A stretch of DNA of 42,754 nt, taken from Deltaproteobacteria bacterium (GTDB lineage Bacteria > Desulfobacterota > GWC2-55-46 > UBA9637). A program made the position numbers and the translations under genes. Under the pieces are notes generated by a model. That model was not told the origin of the DNA. It saw only the letters and a program-made list of their open reading frames with translations, and did not search any database. Shown piece by piece: positions 9,788 through 35,582 of the stretch (positions are counted from its first letter, which is position 1; each line of letters begins with the position of its first letter). The DNA lies in NCBI GenBank assembly GCA_016200645.1, contig JACQEJ010000084.1, forward strand, positions 1-42,754. Direction: 5' to 3'.

Positions 9788-9806
9788 AATAAAATTTCAT
9801 GTAAAT

Positions 9807-9873
9807 CCCGCGCCACTTTCCATTACCAAGGCCGAAAATTAGTATATGCCTTGGCGCAGGAAAGTGGCGCGGG
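9807..9873. repeat. 67-bp palindromic element (CCCGCGCCACTTT...AAAGTGGCGCGGG), copy 1
   Basis: Long hairpin; two differences from the copy at 9975-10041; GTAAA on both flanks. Confidence 0.9.
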
Positions 9874-9880
9874 GTAAAAA

Positions 9881-9956
9881 GGGCCCATAGCTCAGTTGGA
9901 AGAGCCACCGGCTCATAACCGGTCGGTCCCTGGTTCGAGTCCAGGTGGGCCCACCA
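9881..9956 (+). tRNA. tRNA with CAT anticodon, most likely tRNA-Ile2 (lysidine)
   Basis: Cloverleaf GGGCCCA/TGGGCCC, CTCATAA loop, TTCGAGT T-loop, encoded CCA; paired G1-C72 argues against fMet. Confidence 0.9.
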
Positions 9957-9974
9957 GGCAGGCTCAATATTTAT

Positions 9975-10041
9975 CCCGCACCACTTTCCATTACCAAGGC
10001 CGAAAATTAGTATATGCCTTGGTGCAGGAAAGTGGCGCGGG
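9975..10041. repeat. 67-bp palindromic element, copy 2
   Basis: Direct repeat of 9807-9873 on the other side of the tRNA. Confidence 0.9.
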
Positions 10042-10059
10042 ATTTGTTAGAGGTATTTT

Positions 10060-10861: not shown

Positions 10862-11410
10862 TTGAAAGACAACCTTACATATAGGTTCCTCAAAAGATTG
10901 GCAGAAAATCTTGATATGGCCAAAACAATGAAAGAGTTTCCGGAAGTATCTGTTAAGGAGATACATTCTCTTTTTCTCAAACTTGCCGATACCTTTCGGC
11001 CGGAAGATACGGTTCATATCTATGTGGACGGGGCATCAAGGGGGAATCCGGGTGATGCCGGCATCGGCGTGGTTATCACAACTGAGGATGGGAAGATATT
11101 GAAAGCCCTGGGGAAATATATCGGCAAGACTACAAATAATGTGGCAGAATACCAGGCCCTTATTACTGCGTTAGGGGAAGCAAAGTCACTGGGGGGAACA
11201 GAGATTAAGATATTTGCAGATTCAGAGCTTATGGTTAAGCAGATAAAGGGCGAATATAAGGTGAAAAGCGCCGGTCTTTTGCCGCGTTATCAAGAGGCAA
11301 AAACTTTATTGATGAAATTCAGCAAATATGATATTATTCATATAAAGAGGGAAAAGAATGCGGAAGCAGATAGACTTGCAAATCAGGCAATAGATATGAA
11401 GGCTCGCTGA
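10862..11410 (+). CDS. rnhA: Ribonuclease HI family protein
   Basis: YVDGASRGNPG, TNNVAEYQALI, DSELMVKQ and REKNAEADRLAN motifs. Confidence 0.92.
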   Translation: MKDNLTYRFLKRLAENLDMAKTMKEFPEVSVKEIHSLFLKLADTFRPEDTVHIYVDGASRGNPGDAGIGVVITTEDGKILKALGKYIGKTTNNVAEYQALITALGEAKSLGGTEIKIFADSELMVKQIKGEYKVKSAGLLPRYQEAKTLLMKFSKYDIIHIKREKNAEADRLANQAIDMKAR

Positions 11411-11431
11411 AGCGAGATGAGATGGCCGCTG

Positions 11432-11499
11432 CCCAGCGCCACTTTCTGTTACGAAGCATGGCAGAATTATCAAGTTTCGTGCCGGAAAGTGGTGCTGGG
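11432..11499. repeat. Palindromic element (CCCAGCGCCACTTT...AAAGTGGTGCTGGG) in rnpB P3
   Basis: Termini resemble the 67-bp elements flanking tRNA-Ile2. Confidence 0.8.
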
Positions 11500-11549
11500 T
11501 GGAGGAAAGTCCGGACTCCGCAGGGCAGGGAGGTCGCTAACAGCGACCG

Positions 11550-11615
11550 CCCAGCGCCACTTTGCATTGCAAGTCTGATTATAAAATCAGATTCAGCGCG
11601 GCAAAGGGGCGCCGG
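11550..11615. repeat. Palindromic element of the same family at the rnpB P9 position
   Basis: CCCAGCGCCACTTTGC...GCAAAGGGGCGCCGG between the P8 hairpin and AGGGAAAGGGCCACAGAA. Confidence 0.75.
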
Positions 11616-11652
11616 ATAGGGAAAGGGCCACAGAAAACAAACCGCCTAAAAG

Positions 11653-11738
11653 GCAGGGGCTGGGGGCTAGGTATTAGGGGCTGGTTAAATTATTTAATGC
11701 TTTTTACCAGACTCTAGTCTCTAGTCCCTAGTCTCTGT
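11653..11738. repeat. Heptamer inverted array, family F (GGGGCTA/TAGTCYC), in rnpB P12
   Basis: GGGGCTG/GGGGCTA arm pairs with (CTAGTCT/CTAGTCC)n using G-U pairs. Confidence 0.85.
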
Positions 11739-12012
11739 ATTTTTAGGTAAGGGTGAAACGGCGGGGTAAGAGCCCACCGCCCCGATGGTGACATCGGGGG
11801 CAGGGCAACCCCCTCCCGGAGCAAGACCAAATAGGAAGGCATTGAAGGATGGCCCGTCCGCGCCTTCGGGTTGGTCGCTTGAGGCGCTGAGCAATCGGCG
11901 TCCCAGATGAATGGTCATCGCCCTTTTGGGGAACAGAATCCGGCTTACGGTCTCGCTTCAGCGATTTTTTTGTGGTTCTTTTGTATGTTAGTTGAAGAAG
12001 CTGCCTAACTAA

Positions 12013-17191: not shown

Positions 17192-17267
17192 AAATACAGG
17201 CTATGGGCAATGGGCTATAGGCTATGGGTTTTCCTATCGCCTATCGCCTATTGCCTATTGCCTGTCT
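17192..17267. repeat. Heptamer inverted array, family B (GGCTATA/GGCAATA), empty copy
   Basis: 37-bp arm identical to 19230-19266 and 24143-24179; fills the clpX-lon gap. Confidence 0.95.
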
Positions 17268-18527
17268 TTATGCTGATTCTGCCTTTTTCTCGTAAACCAT
17301 TATCGGATTTCCCTTGCCAAGTATCATATCTTCATTGACAAGACATTCCCTTATATTGGCCTGTGACGGCATCTCATACATCACATCCAGCATGGCGTTT
17401 TCAAGAATAGCCCTGAGCCCCCTGGCGCCTGTCTTCCTCTTCATTGCCTCCCTGGCGACAGCAACAAGGGCGCTGTCAGTAAATTTAAGTTTTACATTTT
17501 CAAATTCAAAAAGCTTCTGATACTGCTTGACCAGGGCATTTCGCGGCTCGGTAAGTATCTTTACAAGGGCATTCTCGTTCAGTTCATCCAGCACTGCCAC
17601 TACAGGCAGTCTTCCCACAAATTCAGGTATCAAGCCGTATTTTAACAGGTCCTCAGGCTGAATTTCACGCAAGAGTTCATTGACATTTCTTTCTATCCTG
17701 TTTTTTATATCAGCGGCAAAACCAAGGCCCTTCTTTCCTATCCTCTGCCGTATGATATTCTCCAATCCGGCAAAGGCCCCGCCGCATATAAAAAGGATAT
17801 TGGTCGTATCAACCTGAAGGAATTCCTGCTGGGGATGCTTCCTGCCGCCTTTGGGAGGGACATTTGCAATGGTGCCTTCAATTATCTTTAAGAGCGCCTG
17901 CTGAACGCCTTCACCGGAGACATCCCGTGTAATAGATGGGGTATCGGATTTTCTGGATATCTTGTCTATCTCGTCAATATAGACAATCCCCTTCTGGCAT
18001 TTATCTACCTCATAATTGGAATTCTGCAGAAGGCTTAATATTATATTCTCAACATCCTCGCCGACATAACCGGCCTCGGTCAGGGTTGTGGCATCGGCTA
18101 TGGTAAACGGGACATTCAACATCTTTGCAAGTGTCTGGGCGAGGAGCGTCTTGCCGGAACCTGTCGGGCCGAGCAGGAGTATATTGCTTTTCTGGAGCTC
18201 AACGCCGCCCATGTTGAACTTCTTCTCTTTGCTTTCAATCCTCTTGTAATGATTATGAACAGCGACAGAGAGTATCTTCTTTGCCTTTTCCTGTCCCACC
18301 ACATATTCATCCAGTATCTTCTTTATCTCCGCAGGCTTCGGAACCGACAGTTCCTTTGCGTGTAATATCTCCTCTTTTTCATATTCCTCGCCGATTATAT
18401 CATTGCAGAGTTCCACGCACCCGTCGCATATATACACCATCGGACCGGCAATCAGCTTTCTCACCTCAGCCTGGCTCTTGCCGCAGAATGAACAGGTCAG
18501 CGCATCATTTCGTTTTTTGTCTGCCAT
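17268..18527 (-). CDS. clpX: ATP-dependent Clp protease ATPase subunit
   Basis: CSFCGK zinc finger, [20 protein letters not shown] and LGF loop. Confidence 0.98.
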
Positions 18528-18546
18528 AAAACCCCCGCTTAAAGAA

Positions 18547-18625
18547 AGTAGATAGTAGACGGTAGACAGTAGATAGGAACTGCCTTGTTTTTCCCTGTCT
18601 ACTGTCTACTACATACTGTCTACTA
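18547..18625. repeat. Heptamer inverted array, family C
   Basis: (AGTAGAY)n arm and (CTGTCTA)n arm filling the clpP-clpX gap. Confidence 0.92.
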
Positions 18626-18632
18626 TTAGTTA

Positions 18633-19217
18633 TCACCTTCTCTTCTCTATTACTAAGTCAATTATACCATACTCTTTTGCCTGCTCGCCAGTCATAAAAA
18701 AATCTCTATCCGTATCCTTGCTTATCTTCTCCATCGGCTGTCCGGTATGTTTTGCAAGGATATGATTTAACTCTTCCCTGATCCTCAGGATTTCCTTGGC
18801 CTGAATGCCTATATCCGTTGCCTGTCCCTGCGCGCCCCCCAGCGGCTGATGTATCAAAATCCTGGAATGGGGAAGGGCAAACCTTTTTCCGACAGCGCCG
18901 CCTGCGAGAAGAAGCGCGCCCATGCTGGCAGCCTGGCCCATGCAGGTTGTTGAAACCACTGGTCTTACATACTGCATGGTATCATAGATGGCCAGTCCCG
19001 CGCTTACAACCCCGCCCGGTGAATTTATATAAAGGTGTATCTCCTTATCAGGGTCCTCCGATTCCAGAAAGAGCATCTGGGCGATCACCAGATTCGCCAC
19101 ATCATCGTCAATAGCCGTTCCAAGAAAGATTATCCTGTCCTTGAGCAGCCTGGAATAGATGTCAAATGCCCGTTCGCCGCGGCCTGTCTGTTCAACCACC
19201 ATGGGGATTAATGTCAT
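18633..19217 (-). CDS. clpP: Clp protease proteolytic subunit
   Basis: [30 protein letters not shown] and DRDF motifs. Confidence 0.98.
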
Positions 19218-19229
19218 TGTGCCTCCTTA

Positions 19230-19315
19230 AAATACAGGCTATGGGCAATGGGCTATAGGCTATGGGGTTTTCTCCTATTGCCTATTGCCTATCGCCTATC
19301 GCCTATAGCCTGTTT
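19230..19315. repeat. Heptamer inverted array, family B, empty copy
   Basis: Same 37-bp arm; the other arm supplies the tig stop codon. Confidence 0.95.
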
Positions 19316-20571
19316 TTTATTATAAAATCAAAAACCTTTTCTTCCAGCATCCCTGCCATCAGGGCGGCATCAGAACCTTGCTCTACAAACTGCCTCTTCA
19401 GCTCCTCAAACCTCTGATGGCGCTCTGCAGCCATTTCTTTTATTTTAGCATCTATCTCGTTGTCTGAAACAGTTATATTCTCCTGCCTTGCCACAGCATC
19501 CAGTATCATCTCTTCCTTAACCCTCATCTCCGCTATCCCGGAGTATTTCTCTTTTAATTTCTCAGGGGTCATTTCCGCCGCATCCTCCGGCTTAACCCTT
19601 ACCTTTCTCATATCTTCCATTGCCCGGGAAACAAATGATTGCAAATAGCTTGCCACAAGGGAAGGGGGCGTATCAAATGTATTCTTTTCAATAAGGCGCT
19701 CCACTATCTCTTTTTTAAGCCGTTCCTTTTCTGCCGCCTCTTTCTGTTTTATCAGGGCTTCTCGCACCTTATCCTTCAGCTGGGCAAGGTTGTCCAGCTT
19801 CAAATCCTTTGCAAATTCGTCATCCAGGGCAGGCAAAACCCTTTCTTTTACGGCCTTGACCTTTATCTTAAAGAGCGCCTCCTTGCCTGCAAGCCCTTTA
19901 TGCTTATAGTCCTCATGGAATCTTACCTTAACCTCTTTTTCATCGCCTTTACCCGCGCCCACAAGCGCATCCTCAAGGTCAGGGACAAGGGCATTTGTGC
20001 CTATCACCACAGGATATTCAGTCGCCTTTGCATTCTCCACAGGCTTGCCGTCTGAAAATCCCTCAAAATCTATGACAACCAAATCCTTCTCCCGGGCAGG
20101 TCGCTCCACCTCGCTGAAATGGGCATTCCCCTCCCTCAAGAGTTCCATAGCCTTTTCTATCTCATCATCATTAACCGTTGCCGCCTCTTTCTTAAGTTCC
20201 ATGCCAAGATAGCCTTCCACAGTGATGTCCGGCCTCACCTCAACCGTCGCGGTATAGGAAAAGGGCTTGCCATACTCTATTCCTTCCTTCACATCTATCT
20301 TGGGTCTTGCAACCGGAGAGAGATTTTTTTCCCTGACAACCTTTGGATATGAACCCTCAATAATTTTTGAAACAACCTCTCCCAGCGCATAGTCCTTATA
20401 GCGGCTTTCCAATATCGCCTTTGGCGCCTTTCCTTTTCTGAAACCGTCAATGGAAACCGTCGCCCCGAGTTCTCTGTAAACAGCATCCATCTCCGCGTTA
20501 ATATCCTCAGGCGGAATCTCTATAATGAGCCTCTTTTTTACAGGGCTCAAATCTTCGATTGATACCTTCAT
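19303..20571 (-). CDS. tig: Trigger factor
   Basis: GFRKGKAP ribosome-binding loop, FKBP-like domain; position before clpPX. Confidence 0.96.
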   Translation of the reverse strand: MKVSIEDLSPVKKRLIIEIPPEDINAEMDAVYRELGATVSIDGFRKGKAPKAILESRYKDYALGEVVSKIIEGSYPKVVREKNLSPVARPKIDVKEGIEYGKPFSYTATVEVRPDITVEGYLGMELKKEAATVNDDEIEKAMELLREGNAHFSEVERPAREKDLVVIDFEGFSDGKPVENAKATEYPVVIGTNALVPDLEDALVGAGKGDEKEVKVRFHEDYKHKGLAGKEALFKIKVKAVKERVLPALDDEFAKDLKLDNLAQLKDKVREALIKQKEAAEKERLKKEIVERLIEKNTFDTPPSLVASYLQSFVSRAMEDMRKVRVKPEDAAEMTPEKLKEKYSGIAEMRVKEEMILDAVARQENITVSDNEIDAKIKEMAAERHQRFEELKRQFVEQGSDAALMAGMLEEKVFDFIIKNRL

Positions 20572-20585
20572 TGTACCCCCTAAAT

Positions 20586-20640
20586 AAAGTCAAAAGTCAA
20601 AAGTGAAAAGTCAGAAGTAAAAAGCAAAAACTGCAAAACT
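20586..20640. repeat. Heptamer arm, family D (AAAGTCA), downstream of the four-helix gene
   Basis: AAAGTCA AAAGTCA AAAGTGA AAAGTCA GAAGTAA AAAGCAA; inverted relative to 21044-21084. Confidence 0.9.
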
Positions 20641-20653
20641 ATTATTACTAAAG

Positions 20654-21043
20654 TCATAAGCTCTTTTCTAATCTTGAAATAAAGGATGAAAGCATAGCTC
20701 TAACTTCCTGATACCCTTTTTCTATTGCCAGATGAATAGCTCCTTCTATATAACCCAACTCAAAACTCAAAAAAAGCCAATAATCTGTTTCTGTTGCTTC
20801 CCTTCTCTCAATGGTCAAAGAGTTCTGAAAAACCTTGCCCTTGTTTCCGCCATAACCTTCTGCAATATTGCCAGGAATTGCGGTGGAAGATCTTAACAGT
20901 TGTTTCTTTATTATTCTGGCCTCTTCAGTATTCGGAAATTTACTACAAGTTTTAATGACTGCCTTTGCCAATCCATGAGCCCTTTGCCAAACTATCAAAT
21001 CTCTATAATCCCTAATTTTCTTTTGACCACTATTTTTCTCCAT
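20654..21043 (-). CDS. Four-helix-bundle protein (23S rRNA IVP / Avd-like family)
   Basis: YRDLIVWQRA...QLLRSSTAIPGNIAEG...EATETDYWL...LGYI pattern; 129 aa. Confidence 0.9.
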   Translation of the reverse strand: MEKNSGQKKIRDYRDLIVWQRAHGLAKAVIKTCSKFPNTEEARIIKKQLLRSSTAIPGNIAEGYGGNKGKVFQNSLTIERREATETDYWLFLSFELGYIEGAIHLAIEKGYQEVRAMLSSFISRLEKSL

Positions 21044-21084
21044 ACTTTTGGCTTATGACTTTTGACTTCTGACTCCTGACTGTC
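21044..21084. repeat. Heptamer arm, family D (TGACTTT/TGACTTC/TGACTCC), upstream of the four-helix gene
   Basis: Abuts the ATG; starts 6 nt after the tRNA-Leu CCA. Confidence 0.9.
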
Positions 21085-21090
21085 TTATCT

Positions 21091-21173
21091 TGGTGCGAGA
21101 GGGGGGAATCGAACCCCCATGGTTGCCCACCAGATCCTAAGTCTGGCGCGTCTGCCAGTTCCGCCACCCTCGC
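21091..21173 (-). tRNA. tRNA-Leu(TAG)
   Basis: GCGAGGGTGGCGGAACTGG...CTTAGGA...variable arm...GTTCGAT...ACCA. Confidence 0.96.
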
Positions 21174-21176
21174 AAA

Positions 21177-21270
21177 AATACAGGCGATGGGCTATAGGAA
21201 AATATTTTTTGCCTTTTGTTTTGCCTATTGCCTATTGCCTATAACCTGTATTTTATTGCCTATTGCCTGC
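21177..21270. repeat. Heptamer inverted array, family B, degenerate, in the tRNA-Leu leader
   Basis: AATACAGGCGATGGGCTATAGG arm and (TTGCCTA)n arm. Confidence 0.85.
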
Positions 21271-21326
21271 TTTTTAGTGAAATTATTATAGGGGATTTTT
21301 TTACCCGTTGCAACGGAAAATTAAAC

Positions 21327-21361
21327 AAAAAAAAGGGCGGGTTAAAAACCCCGCCCTTTTT
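21327..21361 (-). terminator. Intrinsic terminator of the porin gene (possibly bidirectional)
   Basis: A8-GGGCGGG-loop-CCCGCCC-T5. Confidence 0.8.
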
Positions 21362-21365
21362 AAAA

Positions 21366-21423
21366 CTTCAAGGCTAACGCCTTGAGTTACATACAACTGT
21401 AGCTCAACCCTTTAGGGTTGAGG
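21366..21423. repeat. REP-like pair (GTAA/GTAG + palindrome)
   Basis: Minus-strand GTAACTCAAGGCGTTAGCCTTGA and plus-strand GTAGCTCAACCCTTTAGGGTTGAG; related copy at 39606-39649. Confidence 0.7.
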
Positions 21424-21428
21424 TGTTT

Positions 21429-22859
21429 TTAAAAGTCATACTGAACTTTTGCAAAGTACTCGCTGACTGTATCGCTTGTTGCAGTGGACGGCTTTGGCTT
21501 TACAGAAAGGATGCCGTCTCCTGGCATAAACCATGCCGCCTGGCCAACAAGTGCAAGTTCTTTATAGAGTTTGTAAACAGCGGTCACATCAACCTCTGTG
21601 CCCAGGGTCGCATCCCATTCCGTGCTGTCTTTCTTTGTCTCTGTCTGCTGGAATTGGGCAACAAGGCCGTTCAAGGTCAGATCATCCGTTGCCTTGTAAA
21701 TGCCGTAGAGCTGGGCAAAGGTGATATTGCCGAGGGTGCTGTTGTCAATGCTGTTTGCACTGCTGGTCTTAATGACTGCGCCGCCATTTGAAACATCGCC
21801 GCTGTCAAAGAATATGGCGGGCCGCACGCCAAGCTGAACGCCGTAAGCGCCTGCAACTCCGCTGAATGCAGTGCTGCTTTTATCCGTCTTGTTGTCGCCG
21901 GAACCATAACCAACGGCAACCCCGACAGTAGCAGGGCCAACAGGCATGCTCGCATCAGCGTCAAGGGCATAAGCGGCATAACTAAGGTCAGCGGCAGAAT
22001 CCGTTGACGCCAAACCGCAGGAGCCTGGCTGACATCCCTTGGTCTTTGTGCCGCCCTTATATGCTGCATGAACCTTTAGATTGACAGGCCCAAGCTGTTT
22101 TGCATCCACGCCTACGCCAAGCCACCAGGGGTTGTCTTCTCCCACAGTAGAAGTTACTGTTGATCTGTTTGCGTCATACACTAAATAGGCAGCGCCGGTC
22201 AGGGCGTCTGAAGGCATGAATACGCCCTCTACGATATAGAGGTCGTGGTCAAGGTCGCCCTGTGTTGTTGCACCTGTGTTTTGGCTTGGTGTTGCTCCGG
22301 TAGATGTCTCCGCAAGTTTTACATAACCGGCGGCAATTGCCAGTTGATCGGACGGCTTCATTGCAAATAAAAATGCATCGACCTGAGAAACGACAATCAG
22401 ACCGCCGTCCAGAAGCCCCCAATATACCTTGTCATCAGAGACCCTGAATGACTGGCCTCCATCCGGCGCATCGCCGAATACGGAACGGCCTGCCTTTACC
22501 CGGACAGGACCTGCATTGAATGAGAGATATGCCTGACGCACATTTATTCTGTTGTTCTGGTCAGTACTTGCTGCGCCGCTTCCCCACACATGGCTCCTGT
22601 TTGGCCCGCCTGTATTGCCCATCTCCAACTGCACAAAACCCCTTAACTGGTCTGATGCCTTGCTGTCAACATTGAGACGGAACCTTTGGTCAACCCAGGA
22701 GTTGTTATCTCCTGTCTTGCTATTGTAATCTGCCGCATTGTCCGTGCTGAATGCCCTTACCCTGTATGTGCCGTAGAATGTGGTATCTACTGCCATTGCA
22801 GGCAATACCCATGCGGCTGTTACTACAACCGCAAAAACTGCTGCGAGAATCTTCTTCAT
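21429..22859 (-). CDS. Outer-membrane beta-barrel porin
   Basis: Signal peptide ending AMA, amphipathic beta strands, C-terminal KVQYDF; AGGAGG SD. Confidence 0.85.
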   Translation of the reverse strand: MKKILAAVFAVVVTAAWVLPAMAVDTTFYGTYRVRAFSTDNAADYNSKTGDNNSWVDQRFRLNVDSKASDQLRGFVQLEMGNTGGPNRSHVWGSGAASTDQNNRINVRQAYLSFNAGPVRVKAGRSVFGDAPDGGQSFRVSDDKVYWGLLDGGLIVVSQVDAFLFAMKPSDQLAIAAGYVKLAETSTGATPSQNTGATTQGDLDHDLYIVEGVFMPSDALTGAAYLVYDANRSTVTSTVGEDNPWWLGVGVDAKQLGPVNLKVHAAYKGGTKTKGCQPGSCGLASTDSAADLSYAAYALDADASMPVGPATVGVAVGYGSGDNKTDKSSTAFSGVAGAYGVQLGVRPAIFFDSGDVSNGGAVIKTSSANSIDNSTLGNITFAQLYGIYKATDDLTLNGLVAQFQQTETKKDSTEWDATLGTEVDVTAVYKLYKELALVGQAAWFMPGDGILSVKPKPSTATSDTVSEYFAKVQYDF

Positions 22860-22957
22860 TTTCTCCTCCTTTTGTTTTTTAATAAGCAGGCAAATAAATT
22901 TGCCGTTTCTTCCCTATCAGCAATTCAACTTTTCTGTCCTATCACCTCCCTTTAGCC

Positions 22958-23022
22958 GTAGCGTCGGGGTTTATCCCGACGAATTCGTTGCCGCGCCCAG
23001 AGGGCGCCCGGGGCAACGCTAC
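22958..23022. repeat. REPIN-like doublet with a nested GC-rich mini-palindrome
   Basis: GTAG-CGTCGGGGTTTATCCCGACG and inverted GTAG-CGTTGCC..GGCAACG, the latter interrupted by CCGCGCCCAGAGGGCGCCCG. Confidence 0.7.
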
Positions 23023-23126
23023 TTTAAAGTAAGCTCATAAATAATAACTAACTATTAGGGCCGAATTGATTTTACCCCCTCTTTTACACCACAAAATAAA
23101 TTACTTGTCAAGTGTTTTTTTATTTT

Positions 23127-24101
23127 TTACACCACCCCCGCCTTCAACAGATCATGCAGATGGATAACGCCTGCAACCTTATCCCGATTTTTCACTTCGT
23201 AAACAAAAAGGGTGGTTATGGAATAATCCTCCATTATCTTGAGCGCAGCCTCTGCCAGCGCGCCTTTCTCTATCTTTTTCGGATTGCGAGTCATCACATC
23301 CTTAACGCTTTTATTTAAAATATCATTCCCTTTTTCCAGCGCCCTTCTCAAATCGCCGTCCGTTATCACGCCGACAAGGTGTTTGTTGTTATCCACCACT
23401 GCGGTAACGCCGAGCCTTTTTGCCGTTATCTCCAGAATTGCCTGTTTCATGGATGCGGCAGCCGTGATTATCGGAATATGTTTTCCGGTGTGCATGAGTT
23501 CGTCAACCTTCAGCAGTTTTTTACCGAGACTGCCCGCGGGATGGAGCAGGGCAAAGTCCTCCTCTTTAAAACCCTTTTCCTCCAGAAGCGCAACTGCCAG
23601 CGCATCGCCCATAGCCAGCGCAGCCGTGGTTGACGCGGTCGGCGCAAGCCCGAGCGGACACGCCTCTTTTTTCACGCCGATATCCAGCGCCACATCGCCT
23701 GCGCGCGCAAGGCTCGACTTCTTATCTCCGGTCATGGCGATAAGCTTTGCGCCCATCCTCTTGATGAGCGGGATGATCCGAATAATCTCCTCGGTCTCGC
23801 CGCTGTTGGAGACAGCAATAACGATGTCGTCTTTCATCAGCATACCCAAATCGCCGTGAACCCCTTCCGCAGGATGCAGGAAAAACGCGGGTGTGCCGGT
23901 GGAGGCAAAGGTGGCCGCAATCTTTTTGCAGATAAGCCCGCTCTTGCCCATGCCGGTTATAATCACCTTGCCGGTTGAATGCAAAATCAGGTCAATGGCC
24001 CTGGAGAAATTTGCGTCAAGCCTTAGGGCAAGACGGGTTATGGCCTCGGCCTCGATTTTCAAAACACGTTTTGCGGTTTGTATGGATTGGTTGGGTTTCA
24101 T
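23127..24101 (-). CDS. kdsD: Arabinose-5-phosphate isomerase (KpsF/GutQ family)
   Basis: GMGKSG, HGDLG, SNSGET, EACPLGLAPTAST and HPAGSLG motifs plus a CBS pair. Confidence 0.95.
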   Translation of the reverse strand: MKPNQSIQTAKRVLKIEAEAITRLALRLDANFSRAIDLILHSTGKVIITGMGKSGLICKKIAATFASTGTPAFFLHPAEGVHGDLGMLMKDDIVIAVSNSGETEEIIRIIPLIKRMGAKLIAMTGDKKSSLARAGDVALDIGVKKEACPLGLAPTASTTAALAMGDALAVALLEEKGFKEEDFALLHPAGSLGKKLLKVDELMHTGKHIPIITAAASMKQAILEITAKRLGVTAVVDNNKHLVGVITDGDLRRALEKGNDILNKSVKDVMTRNPKKIEKGALAEAALKIMEDYSITTLFVYEVKNRDKVAGVIHLHDLLKAGVV

Positions 24102-24108
24102 AATAAAA

Positions 24109-24252
24109 GGCTATAGGCTATTGGCGATAGGCTATGGCCATGAAATACAGGCTATGGGCAATGGGCTATAGGCTATGGGGTTTTCCTATTTCCTATTGCC
24201 TATCGCCTATTGCCTGCTTTTTGCCTATAGCCTGCCTTTATCGCCTATTGCT
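24109..24252. repeat. Heptamer array, family B, downstream of the four-helix gene
   Basis: Contains the 37-bp arm (24143-24179), a local inverted arm and the gene's stop codon. Confidence 0.95.
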
Positions 24253-24608
24253 CCTTGTCTTACTTTAATTAGTTTTCCAATCATTCTACCTAATTCATCA
24301 CAATACGCTTCAATTTTCTCATAAACTGGTTTTTCTAAATATCCTATTTCATAAGCTATCTGAGTTTGTGTTTTTAATTCAGCAAGAGAACCTTTAGCTA
24401 TATAGAAAAAACGAATAGACTCTTTATCTGTGTCACGTTCATCGCCTTCTGCCAAATTACTGGCAATACTTACCGCACTTCGTCTAATTTGGTCTCTTAA
24501 ACCGAAATCACGGCCAAAAATCCCGTCCCCAGATACTTTATAAATAAGAACAGCAATATCCTTAGCGTTTTGCCAAACTATCAAATCTTTAAAGCCTTTT
24601 TTGCCCAT
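24225..24608 (-). CDS. Four-helix-bundle protein (23S rRNA IVP / Avd-like family)
   Basis: FKDLIVWQ...DFGLRDQIRRSAVSIASNLAEG...IAKGSLAELKTQ...GYL pattern; visibly AT-richer than kdsA and kdsD. Confidence 0.93.
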   Translation of the reverse strand: MGKKGFKDLIVWQNAKDIAVLIYKVSGDGIFGRDFGLRDQIRRSAVSIASNLAEGDERDTDKESIRFFYIAKGSLAELKTQTQIAYEIGYLEKPVYEKIEAYCDELGRMIGKLIKVRQGAIGDKGRL

Positions 24609-24611
24609 AGC

Positions 24612-27185
<2,574 letters not shown>

Positions 27186-27991: not shown

Positions 27992-28210
27992 TTTGTGTCA
28001 GCAAGAAAATTTTTATGGCAAAACACATTAGTACAGCACCATTAGGACGGCAGTGTGGATCAAAATTTCCCTGAGCCAAGACCCCACTGAACGTGCTGCA
28101 ATGAAGTCTCTGGAAACCTGCCTTGCAATGCAAAATACGAAGGCACTGGGGTCGGGGAAAGAAGCACTGCAAAATTTGTTTTGCCATAAAAATTTTCTTG
28201 CTGACACAAA
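27992..28210. mobile_element. 219-bp MITE-like element with 34-bp perfect terminal inverted repeats
   Basis: 27992-28025 is the exact reverse complement of 28177-28210; interior homologous to 12013-12226. Confidence 0.7.
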
Positions 28211-35439: not shown

Positions 35440-35582
35440 AGTAGGCAGTAGACTGTAGACAGGGGCTTTTTAGGAGTAGACAGTAGACAGGGAAAGACTT
35501 GTTTCTCCCTGTCTACTGTCTACTGTTTGCTGTTTACTTTCCTTTTTTCCCTGTCTACTTTCTACTACATACTGTCTACTGT
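35440..35582. repeat. Heptamer inverted array, family C (double)
   Basis: Two AGTAGAC blocks facing two CTGTCTA blocks; 35545-35580 differs at one base from 18589-18624. Confidence 0.92.

Follow-up and report, generated by a model that had tools for sequence, protein, structure and literature searches.

Heptamer-repeat hairpins that share one arm, and their relation to S23p/IVP gene cassettes, in the tig-clpP-clpX-lon region of a groundwater bacterium

Background

The intervening sequences (IVS) of the 23S rRNA of Coxiella burnetii and Leptospira are the closest described system to the elements reported here. In the Coxiella IVS an S23p open reading frame (ORF) is inside a loop closed by a 28-bp terminal stem, which is a substrate of RNase III, and the number of GACAGAT heptamers is two or three depending on the strain; an older idea cited in the same article is that the ORF serves mobility (PMC4990558, in the part that deals with the IVS). 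The present analysis is of a window of 42,754 nt, by which we mean the whole stretch of DNA studied, from the genome of a groundwater bacterium. In this window, hairpins made of tandem heptamers are present in the spacers between tig, clpP, clpX, lon and neighboring genes, and two genes of the S23p family (23S_rRNA_IVP, PF05635, here termed IVP) are enclosed by heptamer arms. We know of no function for the S23p/IVP proteins since their discovery in rRNA IVS, and likewise of no explanation for tandem heptamers between bacterial genes. The locus joins the two in one small operon, in which an identical arm is found both in gene-less hairpins and in a cassette that bears a gene.

The locus is similar to an IVS in that the PF05635 ORF is inside the loop of a long stem formed by terminal inverted repeats, and in that heptamers are found in the stem region, their number being strain-variable in Coxiella (PMC4990558, same part). 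It is also similar in being sporadic among relatives, and a hairpin is present here as well at the helix tip of a structural RNA, P12 of RNase P RNA. The differences are that these elements are in mRNA spacers between protein genes and not in helix 25 or 45 of 23S rRNA, that both arms are heptamer arrays over their entire length, and that there are hundreds of gene-less copies in many unit families.

REPINs and RAYT genes represent a second comparison. A RAYT gene is present in a single copy and has repeats of its own family on either side (Bertels and Rainey 2011, PMC3116915, in the part that describes this arrangement). Like REPINs, the hairpins found here are extragenic and present in tens to hundreds of copies, each gene lineage (IVP and not RAYT) has a repeat family of its own, and, for two of three families examined, copy number goes with whether a genome has the gene. 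Unlike in that system, the gene product is a four-helix bundle with no nuclease or transposase fold known for it, both arms consist of tandem heptamers in place of a fixed palindrome of ~20 nt, only one arm is homogenised, and the arms of the families termed B and D below flank IVP genes and not Y1 genes.

Tandem 7-nt units of many types, mostly intergenic, are known as STRR repeats in cyanobacteria and TAACTGA repeats in Beggiatoaceae, and the part of the account that covers them gives direct arrays, in which a single set out of 170 is inverted (PMC4679880). Unlike the repeats in that part of the account, the units found here typically form an inverted pair in the order stop codon, hairpin, ribosome-binding site (RBS) and are linked to a gene family. 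The Correia/NEMIS elements of Neisseria and the ERIC elements of enterobacteria are also small palindromic elements that are co-transcribed with flanking genes, and Correia elements are cut by RNase III. Correia and ERIC elements have a fixed consensus and target duplications, whereas the elements described here are periodic and unit-variable, and a gene-bearing form exists. A literature search, with subscription journals outside its coverage, found a link between heptamers and S23p only for the Coxiella IVS and found no account of gene-less heptamer hairpins as relatives of an IVP cassette.

Results and discussion

One arm is shared by hairpins of three spacers

The window is contig C121 of a genome bin of 1.98 Mb (201 contigs, 94% complete, 45.6% G+C). 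This host genome is designated G000 and its contigs C; the other genomes compared are G001–G009, G011, G018 and G019. The same 37-mer is found without a mismatch at three places on the plus strand of the window (master arm copies 1 to 3 in Table 1), where 100 dinucleotide shuffles give an expectation of 0. An inverted copy with three mismatches is at positions 24604–24640. One more exact copy, at C100:23679, brings the total for the host genome to four, and when up to two mismatches are allowed the number rises to eight. An initial annotation of the window had described the three identical stretches, inclusive of their non-repeat end, and this proves exact. It had also pointed to a decayed copy near 21177, which is a hairpin with two 27-nt arms (21175–21201 and 21228–21254) that are 81% complementary, and to a match between two members of another family, C (AGTAGAC units), that is likewise found. 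Between copies 2 and 3 the identity extends over 43 bp, i.e., the arm and 6 loop bases, and then ends.

The minus strand carries all genes of this stretch. In gene orientation, every 37-mer forms the 3' arm of a hairpin. The hairpin starts no more than a few bases from the stop codon of the upstream gene, and 10–15 nt separate its end from the next start codon. All eight of the near-identical copies are RBS-proximal 3' arms of this type, just upstream of a start codon. They are alike at 35.6 of 37 positions, whereas their partner arms are alike at 25.1 of 37 and pair with them at 23–30 of the 37 positions; the copy at C34:1118 is a solo arm without a partner. Thus the earlier proposal that empty stems share an arm with the gene-carrying copy stands as far as the identity of the 37-mer is concerned, but a single arm is shared and the partner arms differ. 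The 37-mer does adjoin the IVP2 cassette; in the predicted local pairing, however, it is part of a gene-less hairpin nested beside the gene and not an arm around it.

These findings can be accounted for as follows. The three 37-bp stretches are the RBS-proximal arms of family B (units RGGCNAT, ends AAAKAC...GTMTTT), a family of hairpin elements that resemble IVS. Each element consists of two inverted arrays of about four heptamers each and is located within operons, between a stop codon and the next RBS. The elements turn over fast, such that the orthologous spacers of close relatives are empty, contain another family or bear cargo. Within a genome, the arms of one family would be homogenised by short-tract copying, either by ectopic gene conversion or by template switching via repeat homology. 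Three spacers within 7 kb would share an arm because this copying is mostly between neighbors. The gene-bearing form would be an outer arm, an S23p/IVP four-helix gene and an arm, with gene and arms travelling jointly between loci and genomes, and the gene-less hairpins of a family would behave as non-autonomous relatives of this cassette. The explanation as a whole is the best one available, as is the copying of arms between loci that forms its core, and both are given a probability of about 0.6.

Table 1. Arms, cassettes and associated features of the window, in order of position.
Feature	Positions	Strand	Remarks
Master arm copy 1	17192–17228	−	3' (RBS-proximal) arm of the clpX/lon hairpin; 15 nt from the lon start codon
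clpX/lon 5' arm	17233–17269	−	AGGCAAT/AGGCGAT units; 30/37 complementary to the master arm; starts 1–3 nt past the clpX stop codon
Family-C (AGTAGAC) hairpin	18543–18624	−	clpP/clpX spacer; 18589–18624 matches 35545–35580 at 35/36 positions
Master arm copy 2	19230–19266	−	3' arm of the tig/clpP hairpin
tig/clpP 5' arm	19281–19319	−	Overlaps the final codons and stop codon of tig
IVP1 cassette	20586–21081	−	AAAGTCA-type arms at 20588–20629 and 21033–21074; between tRNA-Leu and tig
IVP1 gene	20654–21043	−	129 aa; PF05635, E = 2.1e-27
Decayed family-B hairpin	21175–21254	−	Between the promoter-like site and tRNA-Leu; G004 has a family-B hairpin at the same place
Promoter-like site	21313–21285	−	Followed in transcription order by the decayed family-B hairpin, tRNA-Leu, IVP1, tig, clpP, clpX and lon
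IVP2 outer 3' arm array	24102–24145	−	Abuts the start codon of the kpsF-like gene; predicted to pair with the outer 5' arm
Master arm copy 3	24143–24179	−	Adjoins the gene-carrying cassette; predicted local partner 24185–24215
Inner 5' arm, kdsA/kpsF locus	24185–24215	−	
IVP2	24225–24608	−	127 aa; four-helix-bundle family 23S_rRNA_IVP (PF05635, E = 4.5e-34)
IVP2 cassette outer 5' arm	24597–24640	−	Spans the last kdsA codons and the IVP2 start codon; 34/37 complementary to the master arm
Family-C hairpins	35475–35582	−	crp/mbl spacer

Upstream of the promoter-like site are kdsB, pyrG, kdsA, IVP2 and the kpsF-like gene. The last ~nine codons of kdsA (24612–24640), and the last codons of tig together with its stop codon (19303–19319), are built of family-B units. 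The 5' arms thus reach into coding sequence, and the C termini of these housekeeping proteins have been rewritten by the elements.

Exact copies are clustered

The exact 37-mer is present in three of the four family-B hairpins at 17–25 kb and in one of 64 elsewhere (Fisher p = 3e-4). This local clustering is stronger support for copying than is the order of unit variants. The master order of four units is found in 5 of 38 family-B arms, and there are 32 distinct 28-mers among 38 family-B 3' arms. The proportion of near-identical arm pairs is 0.021, compared with a mean of 0.005 and a maximum of 0.024 in 500 random rebuilds from the pooled units. With the rebuild maximum above the observed value, the support from unit order is modest.

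The small pool of units means that identical orders can recur, and the public contigs of four runs break inside arms, so that no independent molecule spans the arms. These two points are what can be said for independent slippage with chance identity, or for an assembly artefact that collapsed similar repeats. Both are scarcely credible in view of the clustering and of an identity that includes the non-repeat end and, in two copies, the 6 loop bases. Against an artefact, joins between an arm and its unique flank recur in contigs of three other samples, and the exact 37-mer is also present in the independently assembled genome G003. Joints such as 24131 to 24605 were considered as empty alleles and rejected; their loop letters match other family-B loci, and they are hence cross-matches.

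Spacers in relatives

The gene order tig-clpP-clpX-lon is conserved in all 14 loci that were fetched. Family B is found in the clpX/lon spacer of none of eight relatives of the same family, and the flanks of this spacer are conserved (TAAAGACAG ... CTGT.TTTTAACGAGGTG). Its content is AGTGAGC units in G001, AGTTCGG units and ~290 nt of filling in G003, CGATTTA units in G004, AGGGTCA units in G009, AACCTC-type units in G006 and G007, and another G+C-rich stem in G008, and in G002 it is a minimal spacer of 33 nt. The tig/clpP spacer has the exact 37-mer in G003 and an arm one unit shorter in G007, is 14 nt in G002 and G006, and has other elements in G004, G008 and G009. Absent, empty, filled and family-swapped states are thus all present among the spacers compared. 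The arm is old at tig/clpP, and at clpX/lon it is found in the host alone among the genomes compared, which fits copying from the neighboring spacer.

Turnover is also seen at a closer distance. In a strain from the run of another study (genes ~93–95% identical), all four spacers are replaced by unalignable sequence, and IVP1 is absent, with 173 nt where the host has the 516-nt IVP1 cassette. With respect to target-site duplication, orthologous spacers are empty, filled or swapped, the flanks are too diverged to define the ends of the elements, and the elements overlap stop codons.

The initial annotation had reasoned that arms are copied or converted between loci. The clustering, the 0 of 8 at clpX/lon, the unit order and the solo arm all speak for this; the sharing of a single arm does not, and selection also fits the data. 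Under selection, the RBS-proximal arm would be a functional RNA or DNA site, for binding or for translation control, that is maintained by purifying selection, and the distal arm would need to pair only roughly. The position of all eight near-identical copies next to an RBS agrees with this, as does the persistence of the arm in G003 and, one unit shorter, in G007, where the Tig proteins are only 70% and 68% identical to that of the host. There is also an asymmetry between arms. In 43 family-B hairpins the unit variants differ between the arms by gene direction (chi-square p = 1e-8), the 5' arm having mainly AGGCAAT and AGGCGAT and the 3' arm, in complement, mainly AGGCTAT and GGGCTAT. A similar arm-specific skew is present in families D and AGTTNCA. 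Similarity among 3' arms exceeds that among 5' arms in both family B and family D. We nevertheless consider selection unlikely, albeit a serious alternative. Most family-B 3' arms differ from the master, as the number of distinct 28-mers shows, function alone does not predict that exact copies are clustered in one 8-kb stretch, and the clpX/lon spacer works with seven other sequences in relatives.

The gene-bearing cassettes

The two cassettes of the window are between protein or tRNA genes and outside of 23S rRNA; there is no rRNA in the window. The predicted folds of both cassettes close an outer stem around the ORF. In the predicted fold of IVP2 the outer arm at 24640–24604 pairs with the array at 24140–24108, and the 37-mer hairpin is nested inside. 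An alternative pairing, of 24143–24179 with 24604–24640, is 92% complementary. A third IVP gene of the host genome (IVP3, on C109) has the same layout with family-D arms. The solved chain that is closest to IVP2 is the pentameric XCC0516 (2gsc, E = 1.6e-14). The full-length form of the element encodes only the four-helix-bundle protein and, in contrast to the definition of a miniature inverted-repeat transposable element, no cognate transposase.

PF05635 genes are present in 23 of 61 genomes of the class and in 8 of 9 of the host's family. An inverted repeat that spans the gene with a score of at least 12 is found at 37 of 45 IVP loci, compared to 23 of 581 host genes of similar size that served as controls. 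The 45 loci comprise 40 of 74 PF05635 matches, chosen for best E-values and with contig ends avoided, and five others. The arms are of period 7 in 25 of the 37 bracketed loci. In the contigs of eight relatives the number of IVP genes shows no more than a loose trend with heptamer density.

Arm family varies together with gene lineage. Genes related to IVP2 are found in G007 (76% identity) and in G011 (69%), which is from another family of the class, and both have family-B arms. The similarity stops at the arms, and the loci are therefore non-orthologous. At least three arm 8-mers are shared in 7 of 13 non-orthologous IVP pairs with identities of at least 55%, versus 3 of 478 pairs below 45%; the pairs are non-independent, but the effect is large. 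Copy numbers follow the same pattern. Family-B triple units number 184 in the host, 74 in G011 and 58 in G007, and at most 27 in each of the other 58 genomes; an IVP2-lineage gene of at least 69% identity is found in precisely these three genomes. Family-D units number 97 in the host, the sole genome with an intact IVP3, and at most 20 elsewhere; G001 has six beside a broken IVP3 remnant.

The comparison of the empty stems with non-autonomous versions of the four-helix element, as made in the initial annotation, is therefore supported by the co-variation of lineage and arm and by copy number in families B and D, and gains no clear support from a third family (see below). Two readings fit the copy numbers: the protein may aid the persistence or spread of its own hairpins, or a cassette may be able to establish itself only in the presence of hairpins of its own family, which offer homology.

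The second of these would be expected if the hairpins came first and the gene is a passenger. The hairpins would then arise and spread by slippage, template switching and recombination of the host, and the gene, carried in their loops, would pass between hairpins of one family by recombination via both arms, with the protein uninvolved. Settlement of the cassette only in arm-rich genomes would also explain the copy numbers of families B and D, and the arms provide ~35 bp of homology on either side of the gene. Different IVP lineages are found in the same spacer of other genomes, with identities of 30% for kdsA/kpsF in G007 and 32% for tRNA-Leu/tig in G004. These are no closer than the paralogues within the host genome, and the junctions have therefore been filled more than once. 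In addition, the host genome has many gene-less hairpins of families C, AGTTGCA, AGGGTCA and AGGGGCA, and a matching IVP gene was not found in it. What a passenger does not explain is why almost all IVP genes, and few other small genes, are located in stems, and why this packaging is kept across several bacterial families of the class. It is a possible explanation but a doubtful one.

The kdsA/kpsF spacer of G006 (L018, 462 nt) has a small gene pair in place of IVP2, and the second protein of the pair has a RelE/ParE-type toxin-like end, as judged by eye. Small cassettes in general seem to be able to settle at this junction. In G004 (L005, 1250–1822) the IVP gene upstream of tig is followed by an A+T-rich, non-periodic end sequence of ~32 nt. 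The same end recurs without a gene in the clpP/clpX spacer of G003 (L003) and in the host at C84:18553, C141:3276 and C131:11215, and it may represent a further type of arm for cassettes of this kind.

Transposases and evidence against copying

The host genome has two Y1_Tnp genes of the IS200/RAYT type, at C78:18228–18554 and C69:14765–15097. The C78 gene has AGGGTCA-type heptamers on both sides, and the C69 gene has its own inverted palindromes (TTAGGGACACATCCCA). Such an arrangement follows the logic of REPIN and RAYT, where a single-copy gene is flanked by its own repeats (PMC3116915, in the part cited above), and the hairpins could accordingly be REPIN-like elements moved by a Y1 transposase, with the four-helix gene incidental. 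This is improbable, more so than selection, as family-B and family-D units are absent from the flanks of both Y1 genes, two enzymes would have to serve more than 100 unit variants, and arm family tracks the IVP lineage.

Several observations weigh against the explanation by copying and joint travel of gene and arms that is preferred here. Copying or transposition of a whole element does not predict that the RBS-proximal arm alone is shared. The exact arm at the orthologous tig/clpP site of another species, G003, fits selection equally well, and the rebuild maximum cited above limits what can be drawn from unit order. The IVP paralogues of the host are 26–38% identical; hence no recent copying of the gene itself has taken place. 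In a third hairpin family, TTYAAKR, copy number shows no clear link to the gene, although no protein search was made for that lineage: there are 18 matches in G005, 11 of them at its own IVP locus, and 13 in G004, where the matching gene was not searched, but only 4, 3 and 1 in the holders of the gene lineage, G003, G019 and G018. With regard to machinery, we know of no movement enzyme for the PF05635 family, and no reverse transcriptase (RVT_1) gene was found in the host genome, which is 94% complete. The relatives are non-independent samples, and gene calls and hairpin scores are from crude custom scripts.

The folding of the stems is a further point of this kind. Mismatches in the sense stems are mostly A-A, A-C and G-A and not G-U, and more family-B stems fold better in the antisense than in the sense strand (28 vs 13). 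The clpX/lon stem, for example, has a delta G of -50.7 kcal/mol in antisense vs -37.1 kcal/mol in sense. Over all families, the sense strand gives the better fold in 59 hairpins and the antisense strand in 68, and family D favors neither strand. There is therefore no sequence signature of selection for a hairpin in the sense RNA, and a claim to that effect was dropped, as G-U pairs do not favor the mRNA strand.

Heptamer hairpins in the host genome and their possible roles

The host genome has 696 period-7 arrays, compared with 4 in a shuffled genome. Arrays of other periods number 572 (period 5), 219 (period 6), 46 (period 8), 9 (period 9) and 2 (period 10). There are 171 canonical heptamer units. 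Strong hairpins are formed by 229 of 545 array clusters, and ~68 of the 229 are of family B. A total of 127 hairpins are unambiguously between the stop and start codons of co-directional genes, with medians of 3 nt past the stop codon and 15 nt before the start codon, while only six hairpins are purely convergent and three purely divergent.

The hairpins were also considered as intrinsic terminators. None of the heptamer hairpins at 14–28 kb is called as such by a scan that does detect a canonical terminator at 21361–21330, after a porin gene; a run of at least three T follows the 3' arm in 48 of the 127 hairpins. A common ACAG...CTGT frame for all families was rejected as well. The two ends are present in 28 and 27 of the 127 hairpins, mostly of family B, compared to ~4% in random 16-mers. 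None of the heptamer hairpins is covered by Rfam models.

By analogy with the 23S rRNA IVS, the hairpins may act in RNA as processing or stability stems that are cut by RNase III, and a gene for this enzyme is present in the host genome. A search for RNA runs that contain the locus listed none. They may set the relative expression of operon genes, because they are located between essential genes (tig, clpP, clpX, lon, kdsA) and in RNase P RNA.

The proteins may have a part in binding the hairpins or in spreading them. As a tentative proposal, which we hold to be more doubtful than not, the IVP/S23p proteins would be sequence-specific partners of their own arms, with one unit family per lineage. 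They would bind RNA or single-stranded DNA, possibly with one unit per ring subunit, and would maintain or spread gene-less hairpins at the tips of transcribed helices, i.e., in operon spacers, in P12 of RNase P RNA and in 23S rRNA. The arms have mostly 3–5 units, with a mode of 4. The peak is at 4 and not 5, and a simple fit of one unit per subunit of a pentamer is therefore unsupported. If correct, the proposal would describe a partnership of the REPIN/RAYT kind without a transposase, and the rRNA intervening sequences, the IVP protein family and bacterial heptamer repeats would be explained together.

RNase P RNA and other repeats

The RNase P RNA gene of the window (11409–11963, plus strand) is 555 nt, compared with a model of 367 positions. 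The tip of P12 (chiefly 11640–11745) is a heptamer hairpin in which AGGGGCT units are paired with AGTCTCT units through G-U pairs. Its delta G is -49 kcal/mol in sense and -24 kcal/mol in antisense. The hairpin is absent from the RNase P RNAs (377–388 nt) of five of eight relatives. In the RNase P RNAs of G004 (466 nt) and G008 (524 nt) this tip also bears a heptamer hairpin, with units of a different family.

A hairpin family that is not built of heptamers, GCGCCACTTTC ... GAAAGTGGCGC, is present at 9803–10045 and 11430–11620. It flanks tRNA-Met on both sides and also fills two more helices of RNase P RNA, which measure 54 and 67 nt compared with 4 and 10 in the model. The tilS/kdsB spacer has an element of ~220 nt with 38-nt terminal inverted repeats (27992–28210). 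A dispersed palindrome, CCCCCACACCAAA..TTTGGTGTGGGGG, is also found, and many contigs carry further dispersed repeats. The host genome is unusually rich in small intergenic elements, and a CRISPR array is present on C80.

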